Assembly: GCF_963921235.1 (NCBI RefSeq)
Contig: NC_086107.1
Coordinates: 94,366,001 to 94,430,000, forward strand
Reading direction: 5' to 3'
Length of the DNA: 64,000 nucleotides
Source: Mobula hypostoma
Lineage: Eukaryota
Made by a program: the position numbers and the translations under genes. This document shows positions 1,034 through 55,424 of this stretch, piece after piece; within the stretch, counting starts at the first letter, position 1; each line of letters opens with the position of its first letter. A model generated the notes under the pieces. It was not told the origin of the DNA. It did not search any database and was given only the letters and a program-made list of their open reading frames with translations.

Positions 1034-1381
1034 ATCCCACCCCTCACTTCGAGACCAATCCAAAATGTGATAGCAAAGACTGAACACAGTACCACAGATA
1101 AGAATCAGGATATGGTTCTATGCAAATGATGCTGAACATTCTCTGTTTTAAATGTCAGCACCCTTAACACAATACTCAACACTATGTGAGCACTTGCCTT
1201 ACTTTGGCTGTGTTGCAAATACCGAATTTTCATGACTCCTTGTGTATTTCTAACAAGCACCAAGTGAGTTTAACAGTCGTGGTAAAGGGATAGCTATGAG
1301 TTTAGCAAAGAATGACTTACACAAACAGCCAAGGAATTAACAAAGATGCATCTGTGGTACTGAAGTTATGGGCAACACTAA

Positions 1382-2153
1382 GGCTACGCCCACACTAGAC
1401 TGGATAATTTTGAAAACGCTGGTTTCGAGTAAAAATGATAGGCATCCACACCAGGTGTTTTTGAAAATACCTCCGTCCACATTAAAACGGGTATTTGAGC
1501 GAATCGCCTCCTACTGGGCATTCGCAGGACACATCTACAGAAAGCAAGCGAAGAGGAAACGGTACACTTGGTGCACGTTTCTACATACGAGAAGAACTTA
1601 AAAGGAAATTGCCAAAGGACGGACAGCTGTTGGCTCTCGCGCAGGAGGACTTAAAACTAAAAAAACAAATACTGGAGCGTATGGAGGCAACCGACAGGGA
1701 GTTCATGGACAGTATGACCCAGCTGACAACGAACATTGAAAAACTGACTAACTCTGTTGCAGAGGGATTTGCAATGATGAGGAATACGATGGCTCCCCCC
1801 CAGTACTTTTCGCCACCACAATAGCAGCCTCACAGCCACTACAATAGCTATACATACAGACACGCAGACCCCTGGGTGGCTCCACCAGCATCTTCCCTAC
1901 TCCCACAGAGGGGTCACCCTGGAAACATTTCTCTTCACCGATGAAAGGGACAACAGGTTTGTTAAAACCTCCGGTTACCCCTGTACACACTATAATGCTC
2001 AACCGCCGTTTTCAGATTTAAACACTCTGAAGAGTGTTTTAGAAAAGCTCTTGTTTTCGGGTGAGGAAAACGCCATTTCAGTGTGGACGGAGGGTCAAAA
2101 CCAAGTGAAAAAGCTTCGGTTGCGGATTTATTCAATCTAGTGTGGAAGTAGCC
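1382..2153 (+). mobile_element. PIF/Harbinger non-autonomous deletion derivative
   Basis: TIRs GGCTACGCCCACACTAGAC...ATCTAGTGTGGAAGTAGCC flanked by TAA at 1379-1381 and 2154-2156 (Harbinger-type TSD); internal coiled-coil ORF remnant 1495-1824. Confidence 0.85.
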
Positions 2154-3456
2154 TAAATGGCAGCAAGACATTCTGCAGCAGAAGGATGAACACTGAACCA
2201 TACCACACAGGAGAAAGAAGCCCTTCAGCCCATTACGTCCGCGTCGACCAAAATGCCAATACAAACTAATCCCATCTCCCTATTCATCAGAATCAGAAAC
2301 AGGTTTCGTACCACCGGCATAGGTCATGAAATTTGTTAACTTCAAGGAGTGATCTCTCAGAAAGGCGATGTCCATTATTAAGGGCCCCCATCATCCAGGT
2401 CATGCCTCTTCTCATTGTTACTGTCAGGAAGGAGGTACAGAAGCCTGAAGGCACACACTCAGCAATTCAGAAACAGCTTCTTCCTCTCTACCATATGATT
2501 CCTAAATGGACACTGGACCCATGACCATCACCCCACTTTAAAAAAAAATGTACCTTCTGTTTTTGCACTGTTTTTAATCTATTTAATATAAATATATACT
2601 CACTGTAATTGATTTACTTACTTTTCTTTTTTTCTATATTATCATGTATTGCATTATACTGCTGCTGGTAAGTTAACAAATTTCATGACACATGATGGTG
2701 ATAATGAACTTGATTCTGATTTATTGCAGTATAGTAAAGCTTTTTATGTATCATACTGTACTGCTGCCACACAAAAGAAAATCATAACTTGTGCCTATGA
2801 GAATAAACCTAATTCTGATACAGAAGGGAACATTCACCAAATGGGGGGTGGGGGGTGGGGGGTGGAAACAATTATCCTGACCATCATTTCCATCTGATGT
2901 TTCAGATAGGAATTGAAGGTCCTGGCTCCAAAACCTGTTCCAAGAATAAAAGTTAAAAGCAAAGATTATCCATCAATATTAATTAGTGACTAGGAAGCTG
3001 TGAAATTGAATGTCTACTTAACATAACATTTTTCTCTCTTTATGTCGAATGAATGGAGCAATAAAAATTACGAGGCGGTGTTTACACAGAAAACACATTT
3101 GCCTAGTCACGTTTTACTCAGAATTCTCAGCCCTGAGGGAAATAAAAACATCCTGTCACCACAGTCAAATGATTAAAGAGCAAATGAGTGAGCACTTTGT
3201 GCAAGCAAACTGTAAGTAGTCATTAAAATAAGATTCCAATTTCTTAATGAAGACAGTGGTAATAAAGTTAGACCAAGGAGTGGCAATGAGGCCAAGCATA
3301 GATCATAAAGGGTGAAGATCGTGAGTGCAAAGATTGAAGGAGGAATAGCATCGTAATTGTGTACAAGTACACAGCTGCATAATATCTTTAACTTCAACAC
3401 GTCCCATTTACAGCTCGGAGTCAGAGTGGAGGGAGTGTTAAGTAAGTCAGCCCTAC

Positions 3457-3545
3457 CCTTTAACTGGTTCAATCACAGTAGCACCGGTGTAGTCCTCTCC
3501 ACCCTCTGTTTTCACCACAGGCATCACCAGGTCATGCTTCATCGC
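3457..3545 (-). CDS. POLD1: POLD1 coding exon (exon 14 equivalent), 89 nt
   Basis: gctag|GCG...AAA GG|gtagg; [30 protein letters not shown]. Confidence 0.96.
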
Positions 3546-4348
3546 CTAGCAACACAGATGATTAATGCAGCATCTCAGTCTATGTTGACATCTCCGGAAC
3601 TACCATGCAAATTATATTTTTAAAACAACAATTGCTATTTTATTTGATATAACAAAATAATAATAAGAGTAGAGCTTCAGAGAATACATTGCCTTTGCAC
3701 TTATACAGTAGAGCATCCTGTATAAAGAGCCCAAAGTTCATCATCTTTTTTACCTCACCTTTAACAAATGTCATATATATACCTTACCAAGTAAAACGTT
3801 ATCAGATGGTTAACAAGTGTTACTAAACAAACTGACAGTATCGCTAAAGGAAATACCAGGGAAGATAACAAAAGGTTTGTTGAAAGGTTTTTTGGAGTAA
3901 GAGATAGAATGTAGGAAATAAAGAGGGAAAAAACTCCAGAGATTAAGGCCTCAGCAACACAGTAATGGTGTAGAAGTTCAATATGAAATGACGAACATGG
4001 TGTGGTGCCTCAAAAAGACTAAGGGTATCGTCAAGGATGGCTGCCACCCTAGCCATTCTCTTTTCTATCTTCTGTTAGATTAGGGTGCAGAGTTGATAAT
4101 TTTCTTGCAAACTAACCTTCCTAGGCTTGCTTGCATTTTTATATAATCATCAATATATATGTAATAGTTCAGTGAACTTTTCAGTAATTAAGATACAGTT
4201 GCTTCTACATTTTCCGAGAAACTTCTAAGTTTGCAGCAGCAGGTGTCACGCAACTTGAACCTGGTTATTTTACAGGTTAAACATTATCATTGGGATTTTT
4301 GTTGTCTCTAGTCTGAGAGTGAGACGACCATAACTGTGTTTTCCCTTT

Positions 4349-5063
4349 CAACACACATCAAAGTTGCTGGTGAACGCAGCAGGCCAAGCAGCATCTATAG
4401 GAAGAGGCGCAGTCGACGTTTCAGGCCGAGACCCTTCGTCAGGACTAACTGAAGGAAGAGTGAGTAAGGGATTTGAAAGCTGGAGGGGGAGGGGGAGATG
4501 CAAAATGATAGGAGAAGACAGGAGGGGGAGGGATAGAGCCGAGAGCTGGACAGGTGATAGGCAATAGGGGATACGAGAGGATCATGGGACAGGAGGCCTA
4601 GGGAGAAAGACGGCGGGGGGTGACCCAGAGGATGGGCAAGAGGTATATTCAGAGGGACAGAGGGAGAAAAAGGAGAGTGAGAGAAAGAATGTGTGCATAA
4701 AAATGAGTAACAGATGGGGTACGAGGGGGAGGTGGGGCCTTAGCGGAAGTTAGAGAAGTCGATGTTCATGCCATCAGGTTGGAGGCTACCCAGACGGAAT
4801 GAGGCTTTTCATTCTAGGATGAGGGAGATGTCTTCATTTTTTAAAGAAAGGGGCTTCCCTTCCTCCACTATCAACTCTGCTCTTAAACGCATCTCCCCCA
4901 TTTCACGTACATCTGCTCTCACTCCATCCTCCCACCACCCCACTAGGAATAGGGTTCCCCTGGTCCTCACCTACCACCCCACCAGCCTCCGGGTCCAACA
5001 TATTATTCTCCGTAACTTCGGCCACCTCCAACGGGATCCCACCACTAAGCCCATCTTTCCTCC
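4349..5063. mobile_element. Young Penelope-like element with internal inversion
   Basis: 4349-4800 is the reverse complement of the Penelope 3' end (homologous to ~10080-10515); 4801-5063 is a plus-strand RT C-terminal fragment (MSSFFKERGFPSSTINSAL) homologous to ~9430-9670. Confidence 0.8.
4411..4446 (-). ncRNA. Minimal type I hammerhead ribozyme motif in a Penelope terminal repeat
   Basis: Minus strand reads AGTC-CTGACGA-AGGgtctcggCCT-GAAA-CGTC-GACT: stem I AGTC/GACT, core CUGAnGA, stem II AGG/CCT, GAAA, GUC triplet. Confidence 0.65.
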
Positions 5064-5065
5064 CA

Positions 5066-5530
5066 TCAAAATCATTCCAAGATTGAACGGCTTGTCATAT
5101 GAACAGCGTTTGATGGTTCTCAGCCTGTATTCACTAGAATTCAGAAGAATGAGGGGTGAGCTCATCGAAACCTATCGAATGGTGAAAGGCCTTGATAAAG
5201 TGAACATGGAGAGGATATTTCCTATGGCGGGAGAGTCTAAGACCAGACGGGACAGCCTCAGAATAGAGGGATGTCTATTTAGAATGGAGATGAGGAGGAA
5301 TTTCTTTAGCCAGAGAGTGGTGAATCTGTGGAATTCTTTGCCACAGGCAGTTGTAGAGGCCAAGTCTTTACGTATATTTAAGGCAGATGTTGATAGATTC
5401 TTCATTGGTTGGGGCATGAAGGGATAAGGGGAGAAGGTAGGAGATTGGGGCTGAGAGGAAAATTGGATCAGCCATGATGAAGTGGCAGAGCAAACTCGAT
5501 GAGCCAAATGGCCTGATCTTATGTTTTTAT
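5066..5530 (+). mobile_element. CR1-type LINE 3' fragment
   Basis: GLSYEQRL..LYSLEFRRMRGELIETY..FFSQRVVNLWNSLP is the conserved CR1 ORF2 C-terminus, followed by 3' UTR. Confidence 0.85.
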
Positions 5531-5910
5531 AAGGGGCTAAAACCTGCTCACAATACTGCAAGGCCTTAGAGATGCCTTATAAAGCCTCAACATTTACATC
5601 CTTGCTTTTATATTCCAGTCCTCTCAAAATAAATGCACTTGCTTTCCTCACCACAGACTCAACTTGCAAATTAACCTTTAGGGAACCCTGTACAAGGACT
5701 CCCAACTCCCTTTGCATACCAGATTTTTAAATTTTCTTTCCATTTACAAAATAATCTATGGTTTTATTTCTTATACAAAAGTGCATGACCATACACTTCC
5801 CAACAGTGTATTCCATCTGCCACTTCTTTGCTGTGTAACTCTTAATTTGTCTAAGAGTTTCTGCAGCCACCCTGCTTCCTCAAAAATATCTGCTCCTCAA
5901 CCTATCCTTG

Positions 5911-6736
5911 TGTAAGGGGTTTCTTCTTTTATGTTATTGCTAAGGCTAATAAAATGACTTCTTCATTATGTTAACTGCTGAGACAGTGGTTCTCTCTCTA
6001 GCAGCTTGTTTGGGTTATAATTACTGATAATGAGAATTGGATTCATTTGCTAACCAATTGGGATAGATGTTATTCTTTCTTGTGTGTCTGTAAGCTATTG
6101 TTTTCACGGGCTTTGTCAGAAGGCGCGATGGGGACCCCAAGCGGGAGTCCGAGGCTCAGGGTCTTCAGCAAGGAGAGGAGACGAAGACAGACTCTTGTGG
6201 AGCATCTGGTCGACTACTGTGGTTGGCAGGAGGCAAAGAATAGGAATAAAGGGAACCTTTTCTGACTAGCGGCCAGTAACTATCGGTGTTCCACAGGGGT
6301 CTGAGTTGGGACCACTTCTTTTCATGATATATGTTAATAATTTGGATGACGGAATTGATGGCTTTGTGGCTAAGTTGATACAAATGTAGGCCCCTGGTAA
6401 GCCTCAGGCTCGCTCAGCTCACTTTCGTCTAGCGGGAGCAGCCTTTGGCCCCGCCAAACTGGGTAATCAAGTTTGTGTGGATGCTGTGTGATGTACCCCA
6501 CCATGCCAAATATCAGACAGTACACCATATGCGATTAAATGATTACACTTTATAAGTATTTACTGGAATTATGTAATTAATAGAGATACAATATAAAAGG
6601 AAAGTAAAAGGTGCCAAACTTATCAAAAAGTTTAACCAGTTTGTGCACAACCGTTGGAGCTCAGTTAACATCACACAGCATCCACACAAACTTGATTACC
6701 CAGCTGAGCGAGCCTGAGGCTTACCAGGGGCCTACA
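5911..6736 (+). mobile_element. Solo LTR, internally rearranged, inserted in a CR1 fragment
   Basis: Starts TGTAAG, ends CCTACA, flanked by CTTG/TTTG; CR1 sequence continues on both sides; interior carries an inverted copy of its own right junction. Confidence 0.6.
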
Positions 6737-8359
6737 TTTGTATCATCCGCAAACTCTTTACAGGACTGTGTGGAATCGAACTTGGGTTGCTGGTGCTGTA
6801 CAGTGTTACTGCTAACTGTTATACTACCATGATGCCACAGTTTGAATGGTTTTCTATCCCGGTTTGCAACGTTGAGTTTTCGAAATGATCCGTGAATCCT
6901 ATCCTAATTTGTACTGCCTTGTTTATTTGTCTGCACTCCACTTGCTGCCCTTCCCAAGCCCCTGGTCAGTAACAAATGATTGTCTTGAACATGTTTATTG
7001 TGATTGCAAGACCGTGTTGGGGCACTGGGAACGCAGAATACGGTGAGTCAGATTCACTTGTTCAATGGCAAGACTGGCAGTGGGGGAGCTGCAATGCCTC
7101 CGTTGTTGCTCGGTCAAGGCCCTCAAGCCTCGGGGTTGTCTGTTGCGGCCACTGGGGTAAGAGACACTGGAGCCGGTTGTGTGCCACTGCCCTCCGTCCT
7201 GGGTTGAGGGCTGGCCCTCCCATTGGTGCTGCCCTCCAGTGTTCACCTGGTGGAAGACAAGCCGGTTGCCGTTCGTTTGGAGCTGAACTTGCACAAAATA
7301 AAAACCACCGTGGATGGTTCTTGCAGAAACATGGCTCCAGAACAACTTCCACGCACCATCATTCTACAGGCCATGACACTCAGGGACTTGGGCTATATTT
7401 TTTTGTAACTATGTTTTTCTACTATCACAGTTATGTGTTATAATAGCCATATGATGTATGCGACCGTTGATACTGTGTATTGCAACTTGGCTTCAGAGGA
7501 ACAGTGTTTCATTTGGCTGTATTCACGTGAATGGTTGAATGATCATTAAACGTGAACTTGATCACCAGTCTCAATGGCTTTGCCCCTCCCTATTTCTGCT
7601 ACCTCTGACTTGAGGATTCAGCTCGCCAGTTCTAGAGGTGTGGATTCAGACCAGCTCAGTGTCATAAATCAGGGTGCTTTGCGTGAAGCTCACAGGGTAA
7701 ACATTACGCAGCGATGAGTGCAATACAGCAGAATAGTGCAAAGGTAGTAGTATACTCTGAGGCAATGCAAACCAGGAGTGAAGTTTGATCCATCCAAGCA
7801 CCGTTTTGATTTGGAAAGGTCGAGTACGAGCCAGAAGCAGTCCACAGTGTATCGAGGCAGTGAGGCCGGGGCTCGGGCCCCCAGTTCAGAGGGTGACCCA
7901 GTGCCTGGACAATTTAAACGACAGGCCAGATGCACTGAAAAGGCAAGGTGTTCAGGACCGGAGGCAAGGGTCGAGCCCGTTCTGCTCCGGGACATTTAAT
8001 CCGCACTCCTCAGCGCTGAGGCTGTGCCCTTCCCCAACTGCTGTGGGTTCAGTGACTGAGCTTCGCAGTGATTTGCCCCCGTGTGAGGGACTGAGACCGG
8101 GACTATTGGCCCACTTCGGCTGCTCCCAGCTTCGGGTTTATGGACTCAATTCCGTTCTGAGTCCTGATGCTTGCTTTATTGCTTGCATGATATGATTTGC
8201 TTTTTTTCCTCTCTGCACATTGGGTGTTGCTCCTCTTTTTAAATTGGGTTCTTTCAGGTGTCTTGTTTAGTAGCTGCCTGTGAAGCAGAAGAATCTCAAA
8301 GCTATACGATTTATACGTATTTTGATAATAAAATGAACTTGGAAACAAAAAATAAAATC

Positions 8360-15841: not shown

Positions 15842-16164
15842 AAGAGAGAGTACAAGGTCTAAAATGAGATGCACACAAAGTGCTAGAGGAACTCAGCAGA
15901 TCAGACACATCTCAGGCAGGGGTGTCAAACTCATTTTAAGTCACGGGCCAGATTGATATAAATGCGACTTCATGCGAGCTGGATCAGTTGTGCACGCACG
16001 CGTGCTCGCACAGCTTTCGTTGCCTTCGTTTTTTCAACCTGCTCTCATGTGTCTCAGTCTCTGCTATAACTACAAAGTGTTTCACTTTACAAATTTTGTT
16101 TCTTATGAAGAAGATTGCCTAGCAAGCATTATTTTTATGATTGGTATTAACTTACAGTCGTAGG

Positions 16165-16925
16165 TTACAAGAGACCAAGAAGATCATTGTGGACTTCAGG
16201 TATGCCAGGAGTCACACTCACGTCCTCATCTACATCAACGGAACTATAGTGGAACATGCATCAAGCTTCAAATTCCTTGGTCTCCACATTTCCAAGGATC
16301 TCACCTGGTCCCTGAACTCCTCCATCCTGATCAAAAAGGCGCAACAGTGCCTTTATTTCCTGCGGAGCATGAAGAAAGCTCACCTCTGTTCCAGGATACT
16401 GACTGCCTTTTACCGCTGTACCACTGAGAGCATACTCACCAACTGCATCTCAGTGTGGTATCGCAATTGTCCTGTATCGGACTACAAAGCACTCCAGCAT
16501 GTGGTGAAAACTGCCCAGTGGATTATCGGCACCCAATTGCCCACCATTGAGAACATCTAGCATAAACACTGCCTGGGCAAGGCGAAAAGCATTATCAGGG
16601 ATGCATCTCACCCTAACCACGGACCTTTTACTCTCCTCCCATCCGGTATGCGCTGCAGGAGCCTCCACTTCCGCAGCGGCAGGCACAGGAAGAGCTTCTT
16701 CCCTGAGGCAGTGACACTGCTGAACCTCTCATCACAGCGCTAAGCAGTATTGCATCCATATTGTACTGTATCAGTATTTTTATATTTGTGTGCTGTAGCA
16801 CTTTTTTTAATTCGCATTTATTTTGTAAATAACACTATTCTTTGCATTTCTGGTCAGATGCTACATGCATTTCATTGGCTTTGTATCTGTACTCGGCACA
16901 ATGACAATAAAGTTGAATCTAATCT
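16165..16925 (+). mobile_element. Rex/Babar-like LINE 3' fragment nested in the hAT element
   Basis: KTKKIIVDFR-like, FKFLGLHISKDLTWS and ESILTNCISVWY motifs; ends AATAAA..(AATCT)n. Confidence 0.8.
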
Positions 16926-21883: not shown

Positions 21884-23103
21884 CTGAAAAATACATCACT
21901 CTTAAGCGTTAGCCAGCTCCAAATCTCAGGTTAAATATGATAGGATAACCTGTTGTAAAACACTGGTTAATTTTATTTTCATGTTAACCAACACCCAACT
22001 GACTGATTCCTATTTTCGCACTGGCCATGTTTCCTTAATCTTGCACAGACTCCCAAAAGACAGGAAGAATATGCAACGAAAAAAAGAGAAATTCAGTAAA
22101 ATGGCTGCATTGAGATTCGATCATAACCCTCATCCACTGAATTTCTAATCTCAGCCACAATACCACAAAGAGGCATCAATCAAAGAATGAAAGGAAACTG
22201 GTGGACAGATTGGGCCTATATACAATAAATACTTCACAGGAGGCTTCCATGAGACCAGTTGTTTTTGTATTAGTTCCTGGATAATGTTAGAACATTCTCT
22301 CTTTTCCTTGTAGATTTCACCCTCTTTCAAATACTTGTGCTATTTCCTTTCTAAAGTTATAATCGAATGGCACCATAAGGGTTAGCACAATGCTTACAGT
22401 GCCAGCAATCAGTTCAATTCCTGCCGCTGTCCGTAAGGAGACTGTATTCTCCACACGACTGTGAGGGTTCACCCCGGGTGCTTTGGTTTCCTCCCACATG
22501 GCAGAGACAGAGTAAGTTGTGGGCATGCTACGTTGGTGCCAGAAGCATGGCGACACTGGCGGCCTGTCCCCAGACTGTGTTGGCCGTTGACGTAGACGAG
22601 GCATTTCGCATGTTTTGATGTACATGGGACAAATAAAGCAAACCTTTAATCTTCCTCTATATAATGAATTCTAAATCACATCTCGTCACTGTAGAAAATG
22701 TCTTCTCTGTTCACCTATTCTGGCTACAACTACCTCAGTCCCTACAAACTGTTTATCATTCATGATGCCAAGCACCTGCATCAATGTGCCCTGAACAATG
22801 CCAGTATCTCAATTATCCCCACATAGATGAAGTCTCTCAACACTGGCATCATACAAGTAAATCAATATCCTCTCCTTATTAACTGGCCACTGGGCAATAA
22901 GCAGTTCAGATGGCTGCCCTGCTTCTCAGCCACAAACACTGGGATAAAGAAAAACTGGATTTTTTTTGTTTATAATAAATCTATAACACAGAAATGACCC
23001 AAGTGATGCAAGCTAGTCTTCCTCTTACACTACCTTCACCTAACCCTATCACTATAACCTTTGCCTTTTGTTCTCCCTCTTGGGAATTTACCTTTTATCA
23101 AGT

Positions 23104-23305
23104 TGTGGTGATATCACGTGCACTGATGATGTGCTAGTTCCTGACCGGATAGCACTGAGCATGCGCGGGGTTTGCCAGAATGTATCAGCATGTGGCAGGG
23201 TTAAGATGTGTTTGTTTATTTCTGTAAACAAAAGTTCTTTAATTCTTCCAGAATACGATTCTTTGTTGTTAAACCACGGAATGTTTAAATAGAAGTAACA
23301 TAACA
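23104..23305 (+). repeat. 5' LTR (202 bp)
   Basis: TGTGGTGATATC...GTAACATAACA; direct repeat of 24943-25141. Confidence 0.95.
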
Positions 23306-23319
23306 TGGTGTCAGAAGTG
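23306..23319 (+). promoter_or_regulatory. Primer-binding site (tRNA-Leu-like)
   Basis: TGGTGTCAGAAGTG immediately after the LTR; complementary to CACTTCTGACACCA, the 3' end of vertebrate tRNA-Leu(CAA) as I recall it. Confidence 0.85.
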
Positions 23320-23403
23320 CTTTTGGAAGAATAATACCGGAGAATTGAGAAACGGAGATAATCGAAAAAAAATAAGAAAAAAGTTCGAACAGTAATCGGT
23401 AAT

Positions 23404-24245
23404 ATGGAAGGCTTACAACCCCCACAAAAACTTCAGCTGACTGGGAATGTAGCTGAGAATTGGAGGATCTTCAAGCAACAGTTTGAAATATATTTATCGG
23501 CCATTGGAACTGATAAAAAAGCAGACAAAACCAAAGTGGCTACCCTGCTCCATGTAATCGGGACTGACACAGTAGAGTTATATGATAATTTTGTCTTTGA
23601 AGATGGAGATAATTTCAATTTAAAGTCGATAATGGACGGTTTTGAAGTATTTTGTATACCGAAGCATAATTTAACGTATGAGTGATACAAATTCTTCACG
23701 TGTCTGCAGAAGGCTGCTGAAACAATTGATCAGTATGTGACTGAGTTAAGAAAGCGTAGTAGAACGTGCAAGTTCGGATTGCTCACAAAATCACTTATTA
23801 AAGATAGACTTGTTTGTGGCACTCAAGATAATGCTCTAAGAGAAAGGCTTTTGCGCCAGCAAGATTTAAATTTTGAACAAGCATTCGCGCTCTGCAAAGC
23901 TTCTGAGTCCGTAAAGTCGTAGGCTGAAGAGCTTTTTGTTGAAAACTACAATGTAAATGCTGTAAAAAAGCACGAATATATCAAGAAATATAATAATGTC
24001 AACAAACCCGACGGAGAGCAAGACAGCATTTCAAAAAAAGTCATGTGATCGCTGTGCGCGGGAACACAGTCCAAATCAGTGTTTCGCATATGGCAATATT
24101 TGTTATTACTGTGGTAAGAGTAATCATTTTTCATGCTATTGTAGAAGTAGAAAGAAGGAAAATGAAATGAAACAAATAAATGCAGTGATTGAAGATGAAC
24201 GTGAGGAATTTTATATAGAAACGCTTTGCGCAAATACTGACATAG
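23404..24245 (+). pseudogene. Gypsy gag pseudogene
   Basis: ATG at 23404; GNVAENWRIFKQQFEIY, LIKDRLVCG, RERLLR; knuckles CDRCAREHSPNQC and CYYCGKSNHFSCYC; stops at 23683 and 23920; a frameshift near 23960-23995. Confidence 0.9.
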
Positions 24246-24431
24246 AATATAAAAGCAGTAGCTGCAGTGTCTGAGACGACCAAACAGGAGGCAATTGATG
24301 ATGTGAAAAAGCAATGGCAGGAAGAGGCTGTTTCAATGCAAGCAATAATGAAAGAGACACGGAGAGAATAGGAGATTCAGTCTAATCACCATCTAGAGCA
24401 AGAACGCTGACAGTGGGCACAGTATAAGCAA
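24246..24431 (+). pseudogene. RABEP1: Captured RABEP1 (rabaptin-5) N-terminal coiled-coil fragment inside the LTR element
   Basis: NIKAVAAVSETTKQEAIDDVKKQWQEEAVSMQAIMKETRRE*EIQSNHHLEQER*QWAQYKQ aligns ungapped to human RABEP1 about aa 87-148 as recalled (NIKAIATVSENTKQEAIDEVKRQWREEVASLQAVMKETVRDYEHQFHLRLEQERTQWAQYRE); 41/62 identical by hand count. Confidence 0.88.
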
Positions 24432-24929
24432 GTAGTGACAGCTCAAGTAACAGAATTGAGAAGTTTTATTGAAATGATGAAGTCTCAGCATTAAAAAAAA
24501 GAGATGACGCAGTTAATGAATGAATTAGATGACAAAAAGAAGATTCCTATTTCATTACCAATGGAAGTGGAAGGAATTAGGAAAGATACCGTCCAAACAG
24601 AAGCAGGGAAGCAGATTGCTGAGGAGGATAGCATGAACTACTTACCTGAAATTCCAGATTCTAACCAGGAAACATGTGAGAGTAAACCAAAAAGTTCAGT
24701 TGAGATACATGAAGAAAAGCTTAAAGCAGAAAAGAAGAAAAAGAAGAAGCACAAGAAGAGTCATGGCCCAGACAGCGAAGAGCCAACTTCAAGAGTTTCA
24801 GTTAGTTGACATAGATTTGTTTATTGGTTAATGTTGTTATTTGTTTTTCTTCTTAAGGAGAAGATGATGTGTTTCTTCAGAGAATTACGTATTTGTTTTG
24901 ATTAATGTTGTTCTTTATTTTTTCTTTTT

Positions 24930-24942
24930 AAGGAAGGGAAGA
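24930..24942 (+). promoter_or_regulatory. Polypurine tract
   Basis: AAGGAAGGGAAGA directly abutting the 3' LTR. Confidence 0.85.
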
Positions 24943-25141
24943 TGTGGTGATATCACGTGCAATGACGTGTCAGTTCCTGATTGGACAGCACTGAGCATGC
25001 GCGGGGTTTGCCAAAATGTATCAGCATGTGGCGGGGTTAAGATGTGTTTGCTTACTTCTGTAAATAAAAGTTCTTTAACTCTTCCAGAATATGATTCTTT
25101 GTTGTTAAACCACAGAATGTTTAAATAGAAGTAACATAACA
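24943..25141 (+). repeat. 3' LTR (199 bp)
   Basis: Direct repeat of the 5' LTR; about 14 substitutions and one 3-bp indel by hand alignment. Confidence 0.95.
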
Positions 25142-26697
25142 CAAGTTTTTTGCTGTCATAGGTTTTAAGATTTTAAGATGAGTTTTACTTGTCACTTGTA
25201 CGTTACAACATACAGTGAAATACGTTGTTCGCATCAACGACCTACACAGTCTGAGGATGTGCTGGGGGCAGCCTACAAGTGTCGCCATGTTTCTGGTACC
25301 AGCACAGCATGCCCACAACTCACCAACCCCTAAGCTTTTGAATGTGGGAGGGAGCTGGAGCCCCTGAAAAAACCCAGTCGCGGGGAAAACACTCAAACTC
25401 CTTACAGACAGTAACCAGAATTGAACTCTGATCACTGGCACTGTATGCTAACCGCTGCATTATGGTGTGTATACATACACTGGGTGTAAATGCCATGAAA
25501 ATTAACTTTCTGCTGCAGGAACACAGTACATTACAAGAACAGGGCAAAGACACAAACTTAAATTAACATAAAATAACTTGCATGTATGCAAATTAATAAA
25601 CAAAATAAAATGGGTGTTAGTGCAAGATAGAGACAGGACAAAGGCATCCAGTCCAAGGTACCTCATGACCGTGAACATTTTTAGATCCTTTCAAAAGTTC
25701 CATTGCACGTTGAGTATAACAAATGTGACCACATCTAGACTCCAAATCCCCTGCTGAACCGTATCAGATCAATCATGAGAATTGGCTAGTGCGCATGCAG
25801 CCAATTGATCACATAGTTAATCGATTGGGCCTCCTACGTGCAGAGGCCTGTCTTTTTGCACAGGCTTTCAAGCGCACACTTTTTTTCCATTCTAGCGGGC
25901 TCTGCTTGTCTCTACAGCACTGAAAGTTTGCCTAGCATGTACAGTTACTAACGTGACTCAGTTAAAACATTCAATCATACTACTCTGTTGTCATTTCTTG
26001 CTCCGTGCATACGCAACACCTGCCACCTGACATTTTCAAAGCACTGAAATAGGAAACAGCTTTTGTTCTCATTTTGCTCAGAGAGCAATGCCATGAGTTC
26101 ACCGAACAAACGGTGTCACTCATCTCCAGTTAGCTGACTCACAATGAGAATTAGCAAGTGCATAAAAGGGAAGGACTTGCAGAATGATGAGGCTCAAAAT
26201 TAAGTTTGTAAATATTGACTCAATTCCCTTTGTAAGCATTGGCCTGTTTCAACCTTTCACTCTGATACTAGATGATGAACCTGGTCAGATGACAGAGCTC
26301 TCACTGGGTGAGCATTTCAGAGACAGTTGCCACAATTCCCTGACCTTTACAGCAGACAGTATGGGAAAGTATCTAACTGAGGAAGGGGAAATTACAATGC
26401 TATCAGGCAGGAACTTGGAAGCATAAAATATACCAGGGGGAAATGCACAACAGAAATGCGGAGGTTGTTTTGGGAGCTCCTGCAGAGGGCTCTGGATAGG
26501 TTTGTCCCATTGAGGCAGGGAAAGAATGGTAGGGTGATGGTGAACCGTGGTTGACAGGAGATGTGGAACACCTAGTCAGGGGGAATAAAGAGCTTACTTA
26601 AGATTTAGGAAGTAAGTCAGACAGCGCTCTAAAGAGTTACAAAGTAGCCAGTAATGGACTTAGGAGAGCTAGAAGAGAATGTGAGAAGCCCTTGGTT

Positions 26698-27702
26698 CAG
26701 TCAGTCAGTGGGTGCCGTCCCGAATCTGGGGTTGGCAGCTATGCACCTCCATCTTCCTCGATCTTGCGCTCTTTTTCTGGCCTCAGCATAACTCAACCCA
26801 GTCCATTGCCTCACATTATCGTACCAAATGGTTTGCTGCCTTCTTCTTTCCCTCTTTCCTTCTATCATCCCTTCCAATAACAATTTCTGCAGTCCACCAC
26901 CTCTTAACAAGTGTCCAGCATATTCCAGCTTCCTTTTCTGCACATTCTTCAGCAACTCCTTTTCTCTCCTCGCCCTCTTCAACACTTCCATATTACTGAC
27001 CTTCATCACCCATCTAATTTTCTGCATTCTCCTTAAACGCCACATTTCAAATGCCTCCAGTCATCGTTGCGCTTCCTTGCGTAAGGTCCATGATTCGATT
27101 CCATACAACAGACTGTTCCAGACGTAGCATTTCCAAATTCTACAACGTAGCCCAAAGTCCGACCTCTTGCCACATAGCACGTCACCCAGGCTCCAGTATG
27201 TTGATCTTGCAATCTCAATTCTTCGTCTAATTTCTGTATCACATTTCCCATCCTCTGTGACCACCTGTCCCAAGTACACAAACTTCTTGACTTGCTCTAT
27301 GCCTATGCCATTAATTTTGAGACTGATTTTGGAGACTTCTTTCTTCCGTGATGCTACCATCATCTTCGTCTTTGCAGCATTTATTTTCATTCCAAATCGT
27401 TCTCCTTCAGCATTTATCTTATCTATTATTCTGAGTAACTCGTCCTCAGTCTCGGCTAACAACACTGAATCATCTGCATACCTCAAGTTCTTCACCGTCA
27501 CTCCACCAATTTGGACACCAACTTCATCATTCAACACCCTGAAGATTACCTCTGAGTAAACATTAAATAATAAAGGGGAGATAATGCAGCCCTGGCGAAC
27601 CCCTTTTTGGATCTCAACTTCCGGTGAATTCCCACCACAGTTCTTACTACTGCCTTCTGATGCCAGTACAGACTCGCAATCAGTCGAACATCTTTCCCAT
27701 CC
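26698..27702 (-). mobile_element. 5'-truncated RTE-clade LINE inserted in a CR1 fragment
   Basis: GVRQGCIISPLLFN, LRYADD, LLYGIESWT, LEAFEMWRLRRM; (ACTG)n tail; TSD AGCCCTTGGTT at 26687-26697 and 27703-27713. Confidence 0.9.
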
Positions 27703-28582
27703 AGCCCTTGGTTAAGTAGGATTAAAGAAAATCCGAAGGTCAGGAGAACAGGCGGATGACTAGAGTGAGGGTAGGTCCAATCAAGGATAAAATAGGAAAT
27801 GTGAGCCTAGAGTTGGAGGAGGAAAGTTAGTTCTTAATGAATACTTTGCTCACCAGTGCGAGAGACCTTGACAATGTGAGCAGGACAAAACAGACTGATG
27901 CACTGGAACACGCTGATGTCAAGAAGCCCAGGTCACTGCGGTCAGAGGTCCGTGCTAGTCCAGAAGTCAGAGTCCGAAGATGAAAAACTGGGCAGAGTCC
28001 GAAGTTGGAGGCCTGGTGTCTGCAAATCTGAGAGTTTGGCTAAGGACTGGAGGCCCAGAGGTAGCCTGCCCTGGGGATGGAGGCCTGTCAGTGTGTGAAA
28101 GTAGGTGGGTGGGGAAGGGCTTCTCCTTGCTACCGTTGTCTTGTTTTATTGTTCCTGCTTGTGTTTGTTCTGCTGAACATTGTGGGCATGCTATGTTGGC
28201 ACTAGAATGTGTGGTGATGCTTACGGGCTGCCCCTGGCATATCCTTGACTGTGCTGGTTGTTAATGCAAACAATGCATTTCACTGGATGTTTCAATGTAA
28301 TAAATAAATCTCAAGATGAATCTGAGTCTAACTGTTGGATTGGATAGGCAAATTGACTTCCTTTTGTATGACAGAATTCCAACTCACCAAAGTGCTGGAC
28401 GAGACTCTGGGTGCTGACTGGGGTAACCCTGCTCTACCTTTACTTGCACCAGAGATAAGTCGCCAGGCTGTTCACAAGGTTTGTTAAAAATGTTATATGT
28501 GCATAAATTATCGACAAGTCAAGGGAATTCTAGGTATGATGAAAAAAAACAAGGTGACAAAAAAATGCACCATCATTCTTAC

Positions 28583-37499: not shown

Positions 37500-38190
37500 A
37501 ATAACCTAACCTGAAACAACCCAAGCCTGAACATGGAGAAAACACAGGAAATCACTGTGGACTTCAGGAAGGTGCAGATGAACAACCACCCCACACCCCC
37601 GCAAATACATGGCTCCTCTGTAAAGACAGTTACGTGCACCAAGTTCCTGGGAGTTCACATCACAGATGACCTCACCTGGTCCCTTAATATCACCTCCCTG
37701 AACAAAGTAGCACAGCAGCACCTCCATTTCCTGAGAAGGAGAGGCAAGCAAGGCTCCCCGACCCCCATCTTAAATGTGTTTTACAGGAGCAGCATTGAGA
37801 GGGTCCTGACAAGCTGCATCTCCATCTGGTATGGGAGCAGCCGAGCATCAGGCCAGAAGTCCCTACAAAAGACTGAGAACAGCTGAGAGGATCATAGGGG
37901 TCTCCCTACCTCCCATGTGGGACATTCATCAGGGCCCTTGGTATTATTAAGGATCCCATCTATCCATCCAGCATCCCCCTTTGACTTTCTACCATCAGAC
38001 AGGAGACTATGATGGATAAAAACAAGAACAGTCAGGATGGGAAACAGTTTCTTCCCCCTAGTCATAATACTTCTGAACTCTGCTGCATGATATTTGAAGT
38101 GTCACTGGTTAAACTGTTCTGTACCTTACAATATTTAATATTAATGCACTTCAGTTTGTTATTTATGTGTGATTCATCTGTAGATTTTAT
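37500..38190 (+). mobile_element. Rex/Babar-like LINE 3' fragment
   Basis: KTQEITVDFRK..KFLGVHITDDLTWS..VLTSCISIWYG. Confidence 0.75.
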
Positions 38191-46739: not shown

Positions 46740-48140
46740 ATCAGAATTAGGTTTGTTATCACTGGTGTGTCGTGAAATTTGTTAACTTAGCAGCAGCAGT
46801 TCAATGCAATACATAATATAGAAAAAAACAAAATAATAATAAATAAGTAGATCAATTACATTATATGTATATTGAATAGATTAAAAATTGTGCAAAAAAC
46901 AAATAATATATGTTGAAAAGTGAGGTAGTGCTCACAGGTTCAATGGCCATTTAGGAATCAGATGGTAGAGGGGAAAGAGTCTGTTCCTGAATCGCTGAGT
47001 GTGCTCCTTCAGGCTTCTGTACCTTCTACCTGATGGTAACAGTGAGAAAGGGGCATGTCCTGGGTGCTGGAGGTCCTTAATAATGGACGCCGTCTTTCTG
47101 AGTCACCCGCTCCCTAAAGATGTCCTGGGTACTTTGTAGGCTAGTACCCAAGACGGAGCTGACTAGATTTACAACCTTCTGCAGCTTCTTTCGGTCCTGT
47201 GCAGTAGTCCCTCCATACCAGACAGTGATGCAGCCTGTCAGAATGCTCTCCACAGTACATCTATAGAAGTTCTTGAGATACCAAATCTCTTCAAACTCCT
47301 AATGAAGTATAGCCACCGTCTTGCCTTCTTTATAACTGCATCGATATGTTGCAACCAGGTTAGATCCTCAGGGATCTTGACAACAGGGAACTTGAAACTG
47401 CTCACTCCCTCCACTTCTGACCTCTCTGAGAATTGGTATTGGTCTTGCCCTTCCCGAAGTCCACAATCAGCTCCTTCGTCTTACTGATGTTGAATGCCAG
47501 GTTGTTGCTGCGACATCACTCCACTAGTTGGCATATCTCGCTCCCGTACGCCCTCCCGTCACCATCTGAGACTCTACCAACAATGGCTGTATCAACAGCA
47601 AACTTATAGATAGCATTTGAGCTATGCCTAGCCATACAGTCATGGGTATATAGAGAGTAGAGCATTGAGCTAAGCGCACACCCGAGATGCACCAGTGTTG
47701 ATCATCAGCGAGGAGGAGATGTCATCACCAATCCGCACAGACTGTGGTCTTCCAGTTAGGAAGTCAAGGATCCAATTGCAGAGGGAGGTACAGAGGTCCA
47801 AGTTCTGCAACTTCTCAATCAGGATTGTTGGAAGATGATATTAAATGCTGATCGATGAACAGTATCCTGACATAGGTTTTGGTGTTGTCCAGGTGGTCTA
47901 AAGTCATTGAGGTTGCATCTGCCATTGACCTATTGTGGCGATAGGTAAATTGCAATGTGTCAAGATCCTGGCTGAGGCAGCAATACAGTCTAGTCATGAG
48001 CAAACTCTCAAAGCATTTCATCACTGTAGATGTGAGTGCTACCGGGCGATAGTCATTAAGGCAGCTCATATTATTCTTCAAGTACTGGTATAATTGTTGC
48101 CTTTTTGAAGCAAGTGGAAACTTCCACCCATAGCACTGAG
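46740..48140 (-). mobile_element. Rex/Babar-like LINE fragment
   Basis: CLNDYRPVALTSTVMKCFE..LQFTYRHNRS motif plus 3' UTR. Confidence 0.8.
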
Positions 48141-50305
48141 AGGTTAATGAATATATGTGGTATGTCAGGTGTTTGAAGCTTGAATTTATGGGAAACCGTT
48201 CACATGTTGCAGTGTCCATAAGTTTGGTGTTGCAACCAGCCACCAAAGCCTTAAATTATATCATTCTCTTTGAAACCCTCCAAATCATAAGTAAATATCA
48301 ATAATAAGTGTTAGGGTAGAGTCAGAAAGACATAGTACACTGCAGCACAGAAACAAGCCCTTCCGTCCATTTAGTCCATGCACACTATTTTGCCTGGTCC
48401 TATCCACCTGCGCCCATTGTAGTACTTAGCCAAACTTCTCTTAAATGCTGAAATTAAACCCACTATTCACCATTTCCACTTGCAGTTCATTCCACACTCT
48501 CACCACTCTCCAAGTGAAGTTCCCCTTCATGTTCCCTATAAAGAGAACATCTTTTGCCCTTAACCCATGACCTCGTTTCACCCAACGTCCATGGAAGAAG
48601 CCTGCTTGTGTTCACCCTATCTATATCCCTCAATTTTGTATACCTCTATCTGGTGTCTGAAAAGAGAATGCTGTCCAAGTTGCATGCCATCTTGGACAAT
48701 GTCTCCCATCCACTACATAATGTACTGGTTAGGCACAGGAGTACATTCAACCAGAGACTCATTCCACCGAGATGCAACACAGAGCGTCATAGGAGGTCAT
48801 TCCTGCCTGTGGCCATCAAACTTTACAACTCCTCCCTTGGAGGGTCAGACACCCTGAGCCAATAGGCTGGTCCTGGACTTATTTCCTGCATAATTTACCT
48901 ATTACTATTTAACTATTTATGGTTTTATTACTATTTAATTATTTATGGTGCAACTGTAACAAAAACCAATTTCCCCGGGGATCAATAAAGTATGACTATG
49001 ACTATGACTAAATCTCACCTCATTCTTCTGTTCCTGAGAATAAAGTCCTACCCTAATCAGCCTTTCCCTATAACTCAGGTCTTCAAGACCTGGCAACATC
49101 TGTGTAAAATTTTCTCTGTACTCTTTCAATCTTATTGATATCTTTCTTGTAGGCAGGTGACCAGAACTGCACACAATACTCCAAATTAGGTTTCACCAAC
49201 CCCTTATACAGCTTCAACGTAACACCCGAACTCCTGAAATCAATACCAACTTGCCAAAAGCTCTCTTTTACGACCCCATCTACCTATGAGTAAAAAAATT
49301 TCAAAATCTCCAATGTCAAATATTCAATTCGGTCCAAATCTGATAAACTCTTACTTTGAGATTGTGATTTCCAGTTCTTAGATCCCCCAACAGAGGGAAC
49401 ACATTCCCAGTAACTCAAGTCCCTTATCTGTGGAAGTCATTGTTTCCTGCAAGATAGTGCCAGTGACCAATGGCAACATCGTGCAGAAAGCTCACAAAGC
49501 CACTAGCTACTCTTCTCCTCAAAGGACTTCTTCTGAACTGTGATTGATTACAGTCTGGAATTTCCCTTTTAAGGATACATTTTTGAACCGACTAAACAAG
49601 CTGGCGATTCTGAGATCTCCGGGGGATTCTGCGTGATTCAGAGTGCAGAGTGCAGCTACGGTCTTCGCTGGGGGTGCACGCTGTGTCGATTCCTAATGGC
49701 AGAATACAAACCCATGGTCAGCTCCTTTACTCTACGTCGATTAAAGCGCCAAACAAGATTAAAATTAAGGACGAGCGGAACTGAACGTCTCTTCGGCGCC
49801 GTCTATCAGCGTTAGACCAGTATCTCTCTTGCTGCTGCCAATTGCCGCAGGAGTCTTGGATCCCACGCTGCAAGGTTCGGCGGCTCATGGCTACGGACTC
49901 TGGGGTTTGATGTTTAATGTCCTCAGCGCTGAACATGCTCCAGGGCTGTAAACTCACTTTAGGGAGCGCTCCAGTTCATGTTCCATGTGTTTTTCAGCAC
50001 CCTTTCTTACTATTTGCACGATTTGATGGAGGCATTCGGCACGGAATTGGCTCTGCAGCTGTGACTTGCAGTCGACAGCGCTGAACTGACTGACTTGTTG
50101 GCTCCTACAATTTGATGCTTAATGTTCCTGGGATTATTTGTGCGCTTTTTTTGGTAGTTGCGCCATTTCTTCTTTTGTTCACACTTTGGGTGTTTGATGG
50201 TCTTTGTTGTGTGGAGTTTTTCCTTTAAACGGGTTCTGTGGTGTTTCTTTGTTTTGTGGCTGCCCGCAAGAAGACGAATCTCAAGGTTATATATTATATA
50301 CATGA

Positions 50306-53079: not shown

Positions 53080-55424
53080 AAAAAATTATTATTGTAATAA
53101 GCAATAAATATCAAGAACACAAGATGAAAAGTCCTTGAAAGTGAGTCCATAGGTTGTGATGGGGCAAGTGGGGTGGATTGAAGCTATCCCCCCTTGATCA
53201 AGCGCCTGATGGTTGAGGGGTAATAAGTGCTCTTGAACCTGGTGTTGTGGATCCTGAGGATCCTGTACCTCCTTCCTGATGGCAGCAGCAAGAAGAGCAC
53301 GTCCCGAGTGGTTTTGGTCCCCGATGGTGGATGCTGCTTTCCTGCGACAGCACTCCATTTAGAGGTGCTCAATGGTGGGGAAGGATGCGCCCGTGATGGA
53401 CTGGGCTGCATCCCCTATTTTTTGTGGGATATTCCATTCAAGGACATTGGTGTTTCCATACCAGGCCATTATGCAATCAGCCTATACACTCTCCAGCACA
53501 CATCTATAAAAATTTGTCAAAGTTTTGGATGTCACGCCAAATCCTCACAAACTTCTAAGTATAGGCACTGCTGTTCTTCATGATGGCACTTATGTGCTGG
53601 AGCCAGGAAGATCCTCTAAAATGATAACACCAAGCAATTTAAAGTTGCAGACTCTCTCCACTTCTAACCCCCGATGAGGACTGGCTTATGGACATCTGGT
53701 TTTCTCCTCCTGAAGCCAATAATTAGCTCTGGCATTGTGAGAGGTTGTTGTGGTACCACTCAGCCAGATTTTCAATCTCCCTCCTATATGTTGATTCATC
53801 ATCACGTTTGATTTGGCCAACAGTGGTGTTGTCAGCAAACTTGAATATGGCATTGGAGCTGTGCTTAGCCTCAAGTCACAAGTACAAAGCAAGCAGAGCA
53901 GGGGCTAGGCACACAGCCTTGTGGTGCCCTTGTGCTGATGGAGATGTGTAGGAGATGTTTTTGCCAATCTGAACTGAATGGGGTTTGCAAGTAAGGAAAT
54001 CCAGAATCCAATTGCACAAGGAGGTGTTGAGGCCTTGAAGTTTATTGATCAGTTTTGAGGGGATGATACTATTGAATGCTGAGCTGTAGTCAATGAAGAG
54101 CATCCTGATGTGTGCATCTTCACTGTCCAGATGTTCCAAGGTTGAGTGAAAAAGCCGATGAAATGGCCCCTACGGTTGACCTGTTGTGACGGTAGACAAA
54201 CTGCAGTGAATCCAAGTCGCTTCTCAGGCTGGAGTTGATATGTTTCATCACATCTTCACAAAGCACTTCATCACAGTGAATGTAAGTGCTGCTAGATGAT
54301 AGTCACTGAGGCAGGATACCACATTCTTCTTAGGCACTGTATAATTGAAGCCTGCTTGAAGCAAGTGGGTACCGCAGACTGCCAAAGCGAAAGGTTCAAG
54401 GTCTCGGTGAACACTCCAGCCAGTTGATCAGCACGTCTTTAATACTTGGCCACGTACCTCAATCTGGGTTGGATGCTTTCTGTAGGTTCATCCTCCTGAA
54501 GAAGGCTCTCACGTCAGCCTCAGAGACTAAAATCACAGGGTCATCAGGGCAGTGGGAGTTTGTGAAGGTTCCTCCATGTATTGACAATCAAAGCAAGCAT
54601 AGAGGGCATTGAGCTCATCTGGAAGCAAAGCCCTGTTGTCACCTATGTCACTTGATTTCACTTTGCAAGAGGTAATAGCGTTCAAGCCCTGCCTCAGCTG
54701 TTGAGCATCCTGCAGTCCGAAACGTTTAATCCAAAATTCCCACCACACGAGGTGGCTTTCTGGAAATTGTACCTATACTTCTTGTATCTTACTTGGTTGC
54801 CAGATATGAATGTCACTGATCAGGCCCTCAAAAGATTGCAGATCTCATGGTTCATCAAGGGCTTCTGCTTGAGGAAGATTCTGAATGATTTTGTGTGGGC
54901 ATACTCATCTACGATTACTTTTATAAAATCTGTGACAACCATGGTGCGTTCATTCAGATCCTCTGTGTCCTTGAACACGGCCCAGTCCACCGACTCAAAG
55001 CAATCTTGTAGCCGCTCCTCTACCTCCCGCGACCACTCTTTTGTTGTCCTCATCTCTGGAGCTTTGCTTTAGCCTGTGCCTATACGTAGGTAAGAACACA
55101 GCCAAATAATCAGATTTCACAAAATGTGATCTAGGCGTGGAATAGTAGGCATTTCTAATCATAGGATAGCAGTGGTCAAGTGTGTTGGGACCCCTGGTGC
55201 TGCAGGTTATATGTTGATAATAACTGGGCAGAGATGTCTTCAAACAAACCTGATTGAAGTCCCCGACAATGATCTGAAAGGTGTCAGGGTCGTCTGTTTC
55301 TTGTTTGGTGATGGCAGCACTCGATATCTCGAGTGTGTGATTAACACTGGGCTTTGGTCGGTATGTAAACTGCAGTCAGGATCACAGAGGAGAACTCTCT
55401 TGGCAAGTCAAATGGTCAGCACTT
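53080..55424 (-). mobile_element. Long decayed Rex/Babar-like LINE (endonuclease through RT to 3' UTR)
   Basis: [46 protein letters not shown] and LLPSGRRYR motifs in order. Confidence 0.85.

Follow-up and report, generated by a model that had tools for sequence, protein, structure and literature searches.

The stretch of DNA analysed here (the window) comprises 64,000 nucleotides of Mobula hypostoma contig NC_086107.1 (assembly GCF_963921235.1, positions 94,366,001 to 94,430,000, forward strand). It contains a complete long terminal repeat (LTR) element in which a gag-like region is followed by fragments of two host genes: RABEP1, which encodes rabaptin-5, and SH3KBP1, which encodes CIN85. 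Coordinates of the element, its parts and the neighbouring features are collected in the table; position 1 is the first base of the window.

The direct orientation and TG...CA ends of the LTRs, together with the short target duplication, satisfy what is expected of a Ty3/Gypsy element. The LTR pair, a direct repeat of ~200 bp, was recovered by two methods; aligned over 199 bases, its members show 14 transitions and 3 gap columns but not a single transversion (Kimura two-parameter distance 0.076). A target duplication is found only around the whole element; there is no separate one around the RABEP1/SH3KBP1 cargo. The 64-kb window holds no second copy of the Gypsy element. It also holds no tRNA genes.

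A stretch of ~57 nt occurs twice near the 3' LTR (24815-24871 and 24891-24946, 81% identical), the second occurrence spanning the polypurine tract and running into the LTR. In this region, ~72-77 bases are skipped in some contigs from other copies. An inverted repeat pair (22512-22607 and 25217-25323; 62 nt 82% and 41 nt 76% complementary) brackets the element at some distance; it probably consists of two copies of an unrelated short repeat.

Table. Features of the window, with those of the LTR element listed first
Feature	Position	Strand	Remarks
Complete LTR element, 2,038 bp	23104-25141		5-bp target duplication outside both LTRs
5' target-site duplication CAAGT	23099-23103	+	same 5 bases abut both LTRs
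5' LTR, 202 bp, TG...CA	23104-23305	+	direct repeat of 24943-25141
Primer-binding-site-like stretch	23306-23320	+	inferred from TGG start and position right behind 5' LTR
gag, capsid-like part, frame 1	23404-24006	+	in-frame stops 23683-23685 and 23920-23922; homology to P0121
gag frame-change zone, frame 1 to frame 2	23997-24035	+	tblastn pieces of Gypsy polyproteins switch frame
Two CCHC-type zinc knuckles, frame 2	24044-24142	+	31/68 identical to P0121 residues 212-276
Putative in-frame deletion junction, gag linker to RABEP1 ~residue 86	24229-24231	+	protease and RABEP1 5' part missing
Host RABEP1 fragment, ~residues 86-153	24231-24428	+	stops 24369-24371 and 24408-24410; exon 127/128 junction at ~24354, no intron
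Host SH3KBP1/CIN85 C-terminal coiled coil, ~residues 617-666	24429-24584	+	extra in-frame stop codon 24492-24494
Probable pol 3' end and 3' untranslated part	24585-24929	+	open reading frame as read ends 24807-24809; origin not proven
Polypurine tract AAGGAAGGGAAGA	24930-24942	+	purine run abutting 3' LTR; assigned by position
3' LTR, 199 bp	24943-25141	+	direct repeat of 5' LTR
3' target-site duplication CAAGT	25142-25146	+	
Family-B DNA polymerase exonuclease exons, PF03104	42832-43167, 36738-36986, 28511-28759	-	profile positions 38-80, 73-148, 148-184
RVT_1 fragments, probably long interspersed nuclear elements	27064-27711, 47818-48255, 53879-54169	-	unrelated to the Gypsy copy
ALKBH8_N (PF09004) open reading frames	16141-16557, 37515-37883, 56654-57040	+	E 2.5e-15, 1.4e-11, 8.5e-4

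Gag and the host-derived cargo

The gag query (23404-24048, stops read as X) was screened against 595 candidates, 76 of which proved homologous at E ≤ 0.001. Gag is identical at 122/198 positions to the first 196 residues of P0121, a Gypsy polyprotein of 1,285 amino acids (aa). In most of the long gag homologues (~1,290 aa), an aspartic protease is accompanied by RVT_1, RNase H and integrase domains (PF13975, PF00078, PF17917/17919, PF17921 and PF00665), and several are named Gypsy integrase-like or K02A2.6-like. Based on the identity to P0121 and on this pol domain set, the gag can be assigned to Ty3/Gypsy. A Dark_CARD match on gag was rejected; its Pfam score of 17 bits is below the cut-off of 25.

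Other copies of the element carry small insertions at 23997 and at 24032-24033, within the frame-change zone. The zinc-knuckle stretch is 63% identical to residues 5-72 of P0198, a stingray gene model described below; the Pfam zf-CCHC match is weak. A reverse transcriptase (RT), RNase H or integrase of the element's own was not found, as there is no pol homology between 24245 and 24942. The window element is thus a non-autonomous derivative of Ty3/Gypsy and not a complete member.

For Pfam and homology comparisons of the cargo, frame 3 was translated from 24246 through its stops, which were given as X. Residues 1-126 of this read-through peptide match positions 79-203 of the Pfam Rabaptin profile PF03528 with E 4.1e-27 (95.5 bits; cut-off 26.7). 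As a query, the peptide matches 130 proteins of 329-2000 aa at E ≤ 0.001; among the best 120 of these, 115 are RABEP1 and 5 are SH3KBP1, and rays lead both groups. The fragment is identical to sawfish RABEP1 residues 92-163 at 56 of 72 positions. When it is aligned with RABEP1 from 23 hosts, 53/59 comparable residues are identical in both Mobula species, 52/59 in each of Hypanus, Hemitrygon and Pristis, 46-50/59 in ten sharks and 44/59 in a mammal (koala).

RABEP1 has 828-867 aa, of which the window holds ~residues 86-153; the C-terminal Rab5-binding domain PF09311 is not included. The stretch is therefore a fragment rather than a RABEP1 gene. One protein among the matches to the query, the predicted Narcine bancroftii RABEP1 isoform X9 (P0010), contains an RVT_1 domain, probably because a retroelement has been absorbed into the gene model.

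Behind the RABEP1 fragment, 24441-24584 (read-through residues 66-113) is identical at 40/48 positions to residues 617-663 of the 668-residue skate SH3KBP1 (P0117). A search of solved structures with the read-through peptide returned the CIN85 coiled coil over residues 49-114 (5abs, E 9.3e-9; 2n64, E 2.1e-8); rabaptin was not returned. Six batoid SH3KBP1 proteins were aligned with the whole fragment, 24429-24584. Across the same stretch the RABEP1 alignment is weak and contains 20 gap positions, and BLASTP stretches it as far as RABEP1 residue 225. The host-derived part stops four codons short of the SH3KBP1 stop codon. Full SH3KBP1 has three N-terminal SH3 domains; no SH3 domain in the element was matched by Pfam, and the SH3KBP1 stretch is likewise a fragment only.

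Downstream, 24585-24806 resembles neither RABEP1 nor SH3KBP1. The window tracks P0209, another stingray gene model, for 6 residues beyond the SH3KBP1 end and then enters a tail rich in K and E; P0209 itself passes from SH3KBP1 into a stretch matching the integrase tail of the Gypsy polyprotein P0124 (residues 1213-1226). A tblastn comparison of six full-length Gypsy polyproteins with 24585-24806 gave no convincing match; P0130 reached only E 0.39. Since P0209 joins SH3KBP1 to an integrase tail, this stretch probably represents what is left of the element's pol at its 3' end. A match to SLU7 (5xjc_Z, residues 119-179, E 0.0084) was rejected; it lies on the low-complexity K/E-rich tail and has no Pfam support.

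Much of the first-pass annotation of this locus is borne out by these comparisons. It had proposed a Gypsy element devoid of pol, as the gag homology and the pol-free interval indicate. Translation reproduces the peptide that it quoted in frame 3 from 24246 and both of its stops, and the Pfam and Mobula comparisons support the RABEP1 likeness which it proposed from 24246 onwards, as far as 24428. It had also restored 2 nt at the junction; the other copies are indeed two bases longer at 24243/24244 and their frame continues there, so that the gap in the window breaks the frame 12 bases past the RABEP1 start. That start had been placed at 24246. RABEP1 is indeed present there, but its true start appears to be ~24231, in the frame of the zinc knuckles. 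The extension of RABEP1 through 'LPME' to 24809 does not hold: 'LPME' corresponds to SH3KBP1 'LQMEVEGIKK', and the sequence from ~24429 onwards belongs to SH3KBP1 and then to neither gene.

Related gene models, junctions and copies

An exhaustive search of 1.84 billion protein representatives gave 86 matches at E ≤ 0.001. The top two are not RABEP1, and a third chimera is found lower in the list. These chimeras are gene models from Hypanus sabinus and Hemitrygon akajei with open frames of 258-321 aa. P0198 (XP_059819315.1, Hypanus sabinus) contains zinc knuckles, a protease with DTG, RABEP1 ~62-153 and the start of the SH3KBP1 coil; ahead of RABEP1 it matches residues 219-393 of P0124. P0197 (XP_072880776.1, Hemitrygon akajei) is annotated as 'rab GTPase-binding effector protein 1-like' and is similar to P0198, with RABEP1 sequence resuming behind the SH3KBP1 coil. 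P0209 (XP_072897951.1, H. akajei) lacks RABEP1; it matches, in this order, P0124 residues 285-463, which cover the protease and the RT start, SH3KBP1 residues 540-667 and P0124 residues 1213-1226.

In frame 2 of the window, the gag linker ...EEFYIETLC is followed directly by ANTDIE. The counterparts in P0198, ...EEFYIDVLC and ...EANTDME, lie ~140 residues apart with the protease between them. Because P0198 keeps a protease between stretches that abut in the window, the window copy can be read as a deletion derivative without the protease and the RABEP1 start. A stepwise history would follow: forms with SH3KBP1 only, forms with protease and a longer RABEP1 part, then the protease-less form of the window.

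All three junctions visible in DNA (zinc knuckle to RABEP1, RABEP1 to SH3KBP1 and SH3KBP1 to tail) are in frame. The host part is in the gag frame in the window, and also in P0197 and P0198. The junctions found only in gene models are in frame in 4/4 cases; gene models are biased towards open frames. Several joins fall at shared residues (..LEVI/..KEVIKKAP, ..GIKKA/..QKATVL and ..YKE/..EEVKAQ). At the amino acid level such joins would fit RT template switching. A heptad-register scan over the join of RABEP1 and SH3KBP1 showed that the register wanders already within RABEP1.

Exon structure points to a spliced mRNA as the source of the RABEP1 piece. Among 60 short RABEP1-like open reading frames (ORFs; ≤200 aa) from the search of representatives, 34 stop exactly at residue 127 and continue with G and unrelated residues. 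Eight of these 34 begin at residue 60, and in some cases FFSP or similar residues come before that start. An end at residue 127 followed by G has the appearance of a phase-1 splice donor that is read through, and residues such as FFSP would fit a translated pyrimidine-rich acceptor. One of these short ORFs, P0225, shares 90% identity with ray RABEP1. The window crosses the RABEP1 127/128 boundary uninterrupted, and P0198 covers residues 62-153. As this conserved exon junction is crossed without an intron, the RABEP1 piece stems from spliced mRNA. In P0209, the sequence likewise runs through what looks like an SH3KBP1 exon boundary, near residue 604/605. The RABEP1 5' join (DTE/LK, residue 61/62) is no more than two codons away from an exon start, which would fit a splice-mediated join as in classical oncogene capture.

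Copies outside the window were sought in contigs from four sequencing runs, which were compared with 23000-24960 at a likeness of at least 80%. Sequence words of the element are present in runs of nine organisms; DNA runs of organisms A, B and C gave 1,717, 1,810 and 1,475 contigs on the element, respectively. Summed contig depth, a rough proxy, is 1,104-7,554 over the host-derived part (24254-24583) in run X1 against 6.1 in unique flank, and 5,961-26,422 against 29.6 in run X5. Restricted to the RABEP1 part (24254-24385), the depth is 1,104-1,883 in X1 and 5,961-8,153 in X5; the SH3KBP1 part is higher. In the three organisms, the host-derived part thus stands at ~100-700 times the unique flank. 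In run X9, record 32 (24349-24658) bridges RABEP1, SH3KBP1 and the tail. Since contigs far exceed the depth of the flank and bridge the same junctions, the chimera has propagated and is present in many copies.

The junction between zinc knuckles and RABEP1 is bridged by X9 record 31 (24037-24327) and X1 record 8 (24033-24243 plus a loose end). Both contigs are 11-14% diverged from the window; the protease-less subfamily of the window is therefore itself multi-copy. The bridging contigs come from organisms A and C. Loose ends of other copies continue into protease and upstream RABEP1. A contig from organism B (23000-23181) spans the same boundary between flank and LTR with 3 differences in ~181 bases, so that the insertion is older than the split of A and B. 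None of the runs listed is registered as RNA. One of them, X18, was guessed to be RNA; its 71 contigs cover gag and 24386-24791, with a depth of 0-1.35 over 24254-24385, and were not used as evidence.

The three element-borne RABEP1 fragments are 87-90% identical to myliobatiform RABEP1 and 82-83% identical to one another. This pattern is star-like and reflects neutral decay from a founder that still closely resembled the host sequence. The differences between the window and host RABEP1 include at least four that are private to the window copy, including the stop at 24408; nearly all other contigs differ there. The motif QWAQY is common to the element fragments and, among the 23 hosts, only to Mobula, Hypanus and Hemitrygon. 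Because of this restriction, the RABEP1 capture can be placed in Myliobatiformes.

The window copy is a long-dead pseudogene, as evidenced by five in-frame stops, two frame breaks and LTRs that are 7.6% apart. The first-pass annotation had reached the same view of this copy. Its choice of a propagated chimera over a secondary insertion is likewise supported by the contigs that bridge the same junctions and by the lack of a target duplication around the cargo. The exon-junction comparison that it proposed points to mRNA capture, as described above. Its family-wide Gag-rabaptin fusion stands in part: gag and RABEP1 are in one frame in other copies, but the cargo derives from two genes and seems to have been assembled in steps.

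Neighbouring features of the window

Three exons on the minus strand match the exonuclease domain of family-B DNA polymerases; judging by the motif, they probably belong to POLD1. The Gypsy element lies downstream of these exons on the opposite strand. A set of 130 minus-strand ORFs (38-81 aa) yielded no further polymerase exon below 23000, and an intronic location of the element is not established. The three ALKBH8_N ORFs are dispersed, which suggests a repeat family rather than a gene.

Origin of the chimera and comparison with known systems

The element in the window is very probably an old and dead member of a non-autonomous Ty3/Gypsy family of myliobatiform rays that carries fragments of RABEP1 and SH3KBP1. 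Of the original genes, this family would have retained gag, with its capsid-like part and its zinc knuckles; some members would still have the protease, whereas RT, RNase H and integrase would have been lost. In place of the latter three, intron-less coiled coils from the N-terminal part of RABEP1 and the C-terminal part of SH3KBP1 would stand in the gag frame, followed by the pol tail.

The chimera may have arisen when spliced host mRNAs were packaged together with element RNA and RT switched templates at short homologies. Since the RABEP1 5' join is so close to an exon start, that join may instead result from splicing of a read-through transcript. It is likely that SH3KBP1 replaced RT, RNase H and integrase before RABEP1 was added behind the protease; a later in-frame deletion, specific to the window subfamily, would have taken out the protease together with the first part of RABEP1. 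An autonomous relative presumably supplied the enzymes by which the chimeras were copied in trans. The window copy would have decayed neutrally afterwards.

A number of observations weigh against parts of this account. The extra codon 24492-24494 is common to most contigs and is a stop in the window; if it is also a stop in the other copies, most of the SH3KBP1 part was left untranslated in the main burst. The pol origin of 24585-24806 is not statistically secured, as the colinear P0124 match is weak (best z 3.8 versus shuffles). No autonomous partner was identified in rays; the closest match to gag has 62% identity and falls into a cluster with a teleost protein. Gag- and RABEP1-less variants (joint 23337 to 24453) occur in two organisms, and coding content is therefore not needed for copying.

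Other points concern the data themselves. Microhomologies at the junctions are seen at protein level only. Four junctions come from automatic gene models only: the protease/RABEP1 junction, the RT/SH3KBP1 junction, the return of RABEP1 in P0197 and P0197's own deletion. Models of this kind may bypass defects by splicing or fuse copies that lie side by side, and the joins could be predicted introns. Summed contig depth is not copy number, and the window's copy is the only whole DNA copy in the data.

Three other explanations were considered. In one, a single capture of RABEP1 replaced pol right behind the zinc knuckles, and RABEP1 runs to 24809; the strong match over 24246-24428 and the gapped BLASTP alignment to residue 225 would agree with this. 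Nevertheless it is very improbable, since that alignment needs its 20 gap positions exactly where 40/48 residues are identical to SH3KBP1 and the CIN85 structure is matched, and since P0198 indicates that a protease once lay between the knuckles and RABEP1. The idea that a processed RABEP1/SH3KBP1 pseudogene, or some unrelated insertion, entered a single gag-only copy and never propagated is hardly credible. It would explain why the 64-kb window holds no second copy; it does not explain the contigs of three organisms, whose depth is well beyond that of a single copy and which span the same junctions, nor the same RABEP1/SH3KBP1 join in gene models of two stingray species, nor a sole target duplication that flanks the whole element and not the cargo. 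Very little weight can also be given to a domesticated, single-copy host gene for a gag-coiled-coil protein, of which the window would be a decayed paralogue. NCBI does treat the relatives as proteins, and their frames are open over 258-321 aa. On the other hand, there are many diverged copies (82-83% mutual identity, 87-90% to the host), the window has LTRs and a target duplication, the three gene models differ in architecture, and no orthologue was found outside stingrays among the 1.84 billion representatives.

Another explanation accepts the same family and adds selection: the in-frame coiled coils, behind gag (and protease), would replace the self-association which RT and integrase normally give to Gag-Pol, or would provide contacts with Rab4 and endosomes, and the non-autonomous family would owe its success to them. 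CIN85 trimerises through its coiled coil according to excerpts of PMC10786037, and the N-terminal region of rabaptin-5 binds Rab4 according to excerpts of PMC4102244. All junctions are in frame (3 in DNA, 4 in gene models), both donors are coiled coils of endocytic adaptors, and the private differences of the window (at least four) imply that the sequence which spread was nearly host-like. A single-sequence AlphaFold prediction for P0198 gives one helix, 226-300, across the join at a pLDDT of 83-97, in a model with a mean pLDDT of 45.6. Selection is nonetheless unlikely given the star-like decay, the copying of gag-less variants, the possible stop at 24492-24494 in most contigs, the capture of only part of the Rab4-binding region and the bias of gene models towards open frames. 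It is more likely that the cargo is a tolerated passenger which keeps the gag frame open than that it is an adaptive module.

A bolder version of this idea is equally doubtful: a ray Ty3/Gypsy lineage would twice have taken up coils of endocytic adaptors (the trimerising coil of CIN85 and the Rab4-side N-terminal coil of rabaptin-5) and fused them in frame behind gag and protease where RT, RNase H and integrase had been, and a self-associating Gag-protease-coil protein would have been selected because it joins in the assembly of helper particles or hijacks them, possibly at endosomes. If true, the self-associating fusion would explain the success of the family as a parasite of a parasite. Should the fusion protein prove functional, it would be a rare example in which host modules for oligomerisation or trafficking have been put to use by a transposon for its own assembly.

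The value of the system lies in its natural series of intermediates: SH3KBP1 only; protease, RABEP1 and SH3KBP1; and the protease-less form. These could allow the mechanics of capture (splicing versus template switching) to be read base by base. There is also a practical consequence. In rays, annotated copies and the many dispersed coiled-coil fragments of RABEP1 and SH3KBP1 can lead to errors in gene prediction, in orthology assignment and in RNA-seq counting.

Host-gene capture by LTR retroelements is already well documented in oncogenic retroviruses, a few endogenous retroviruses (ERVs) and plant elements such as Bs1. In the literature searched, no report was found of a vertebrate Ty3/Gypsy element with host gene fragments, or of one in rays, and nothing was found that links rabaptin to a Ty3/Gypsy retrotransposon; the pairing of SH3KBP1/CIN85 with retrotransposons was not searched.

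In Gag-onc retroviruses such as those encoding Gag-Myc and Gag-Abl, a spliced host mRNA replaces replicative genes in the gag frame, and the resulting viruses are replication-defective and depend on a helper. Their accepted origin involves read-through or splicing at the 5' join and RT template switching at the 3' join. The ray element would be a counterpart, in that spliced host sequence stands in the gag frame where replicative genes had been. These retroviruses are exogenous and undergo selection in somatic tumours, and their oncogene parts are catalytic or regulatory. The ray element, in contrast, moves in the germline as a retrotransposon, its coiled coils are short and structural, and nothing points to pathology.

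Maize Bs1 retains gag. Excerpts of PMC13317346 describe Bs1 as a non-autonomous LTR element in which three transduced segments of host genes form a hybrid ORF. In these respects the ray element would be similar, as a non-autonomous LTR element appears to have transduced segments of more than one host gene, which together make up a hybrid reading frame. Bs1 occurs in a plant and at low copy number, and its chimeric gene is reported to be transcribed and translated. Unlike Bs1, the ray element has a cartilaginous-fish host, a Ty3/Gypsy backbone, two coiled-coil fragments and an apparently high copy number.

Crocodilian ERVs have captured KIT-ligand and nectin3 mRNAs; according to excerpts of PMC4299795, these are intron-less, present in several copies and common to related species. 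The ray element resembles them as a vertebrate LTR retroelement that encloses intron-less host mRNA. The same excerpts describe the crocodilian ERVs as ERV4-like retroviruses with near full-length ORFs, carried as separate genes under purifying selection. In contrast, the ray element has a Ty3/Gypsy backbone and short fragments of two genes which are fused to gag.

Barley BARE-2 keeps gag and LTRs, has no working pol and is mobilised by an autonomous relative; it contains no host gene fragments. BARE-2 is named in excerpts of PMC13317346. The ray element shares with BARE-2 the presence of gag and LTRs without a working pol and, presumably, mobilisation in trans, and differs from it in the host gene fragments that it carries.

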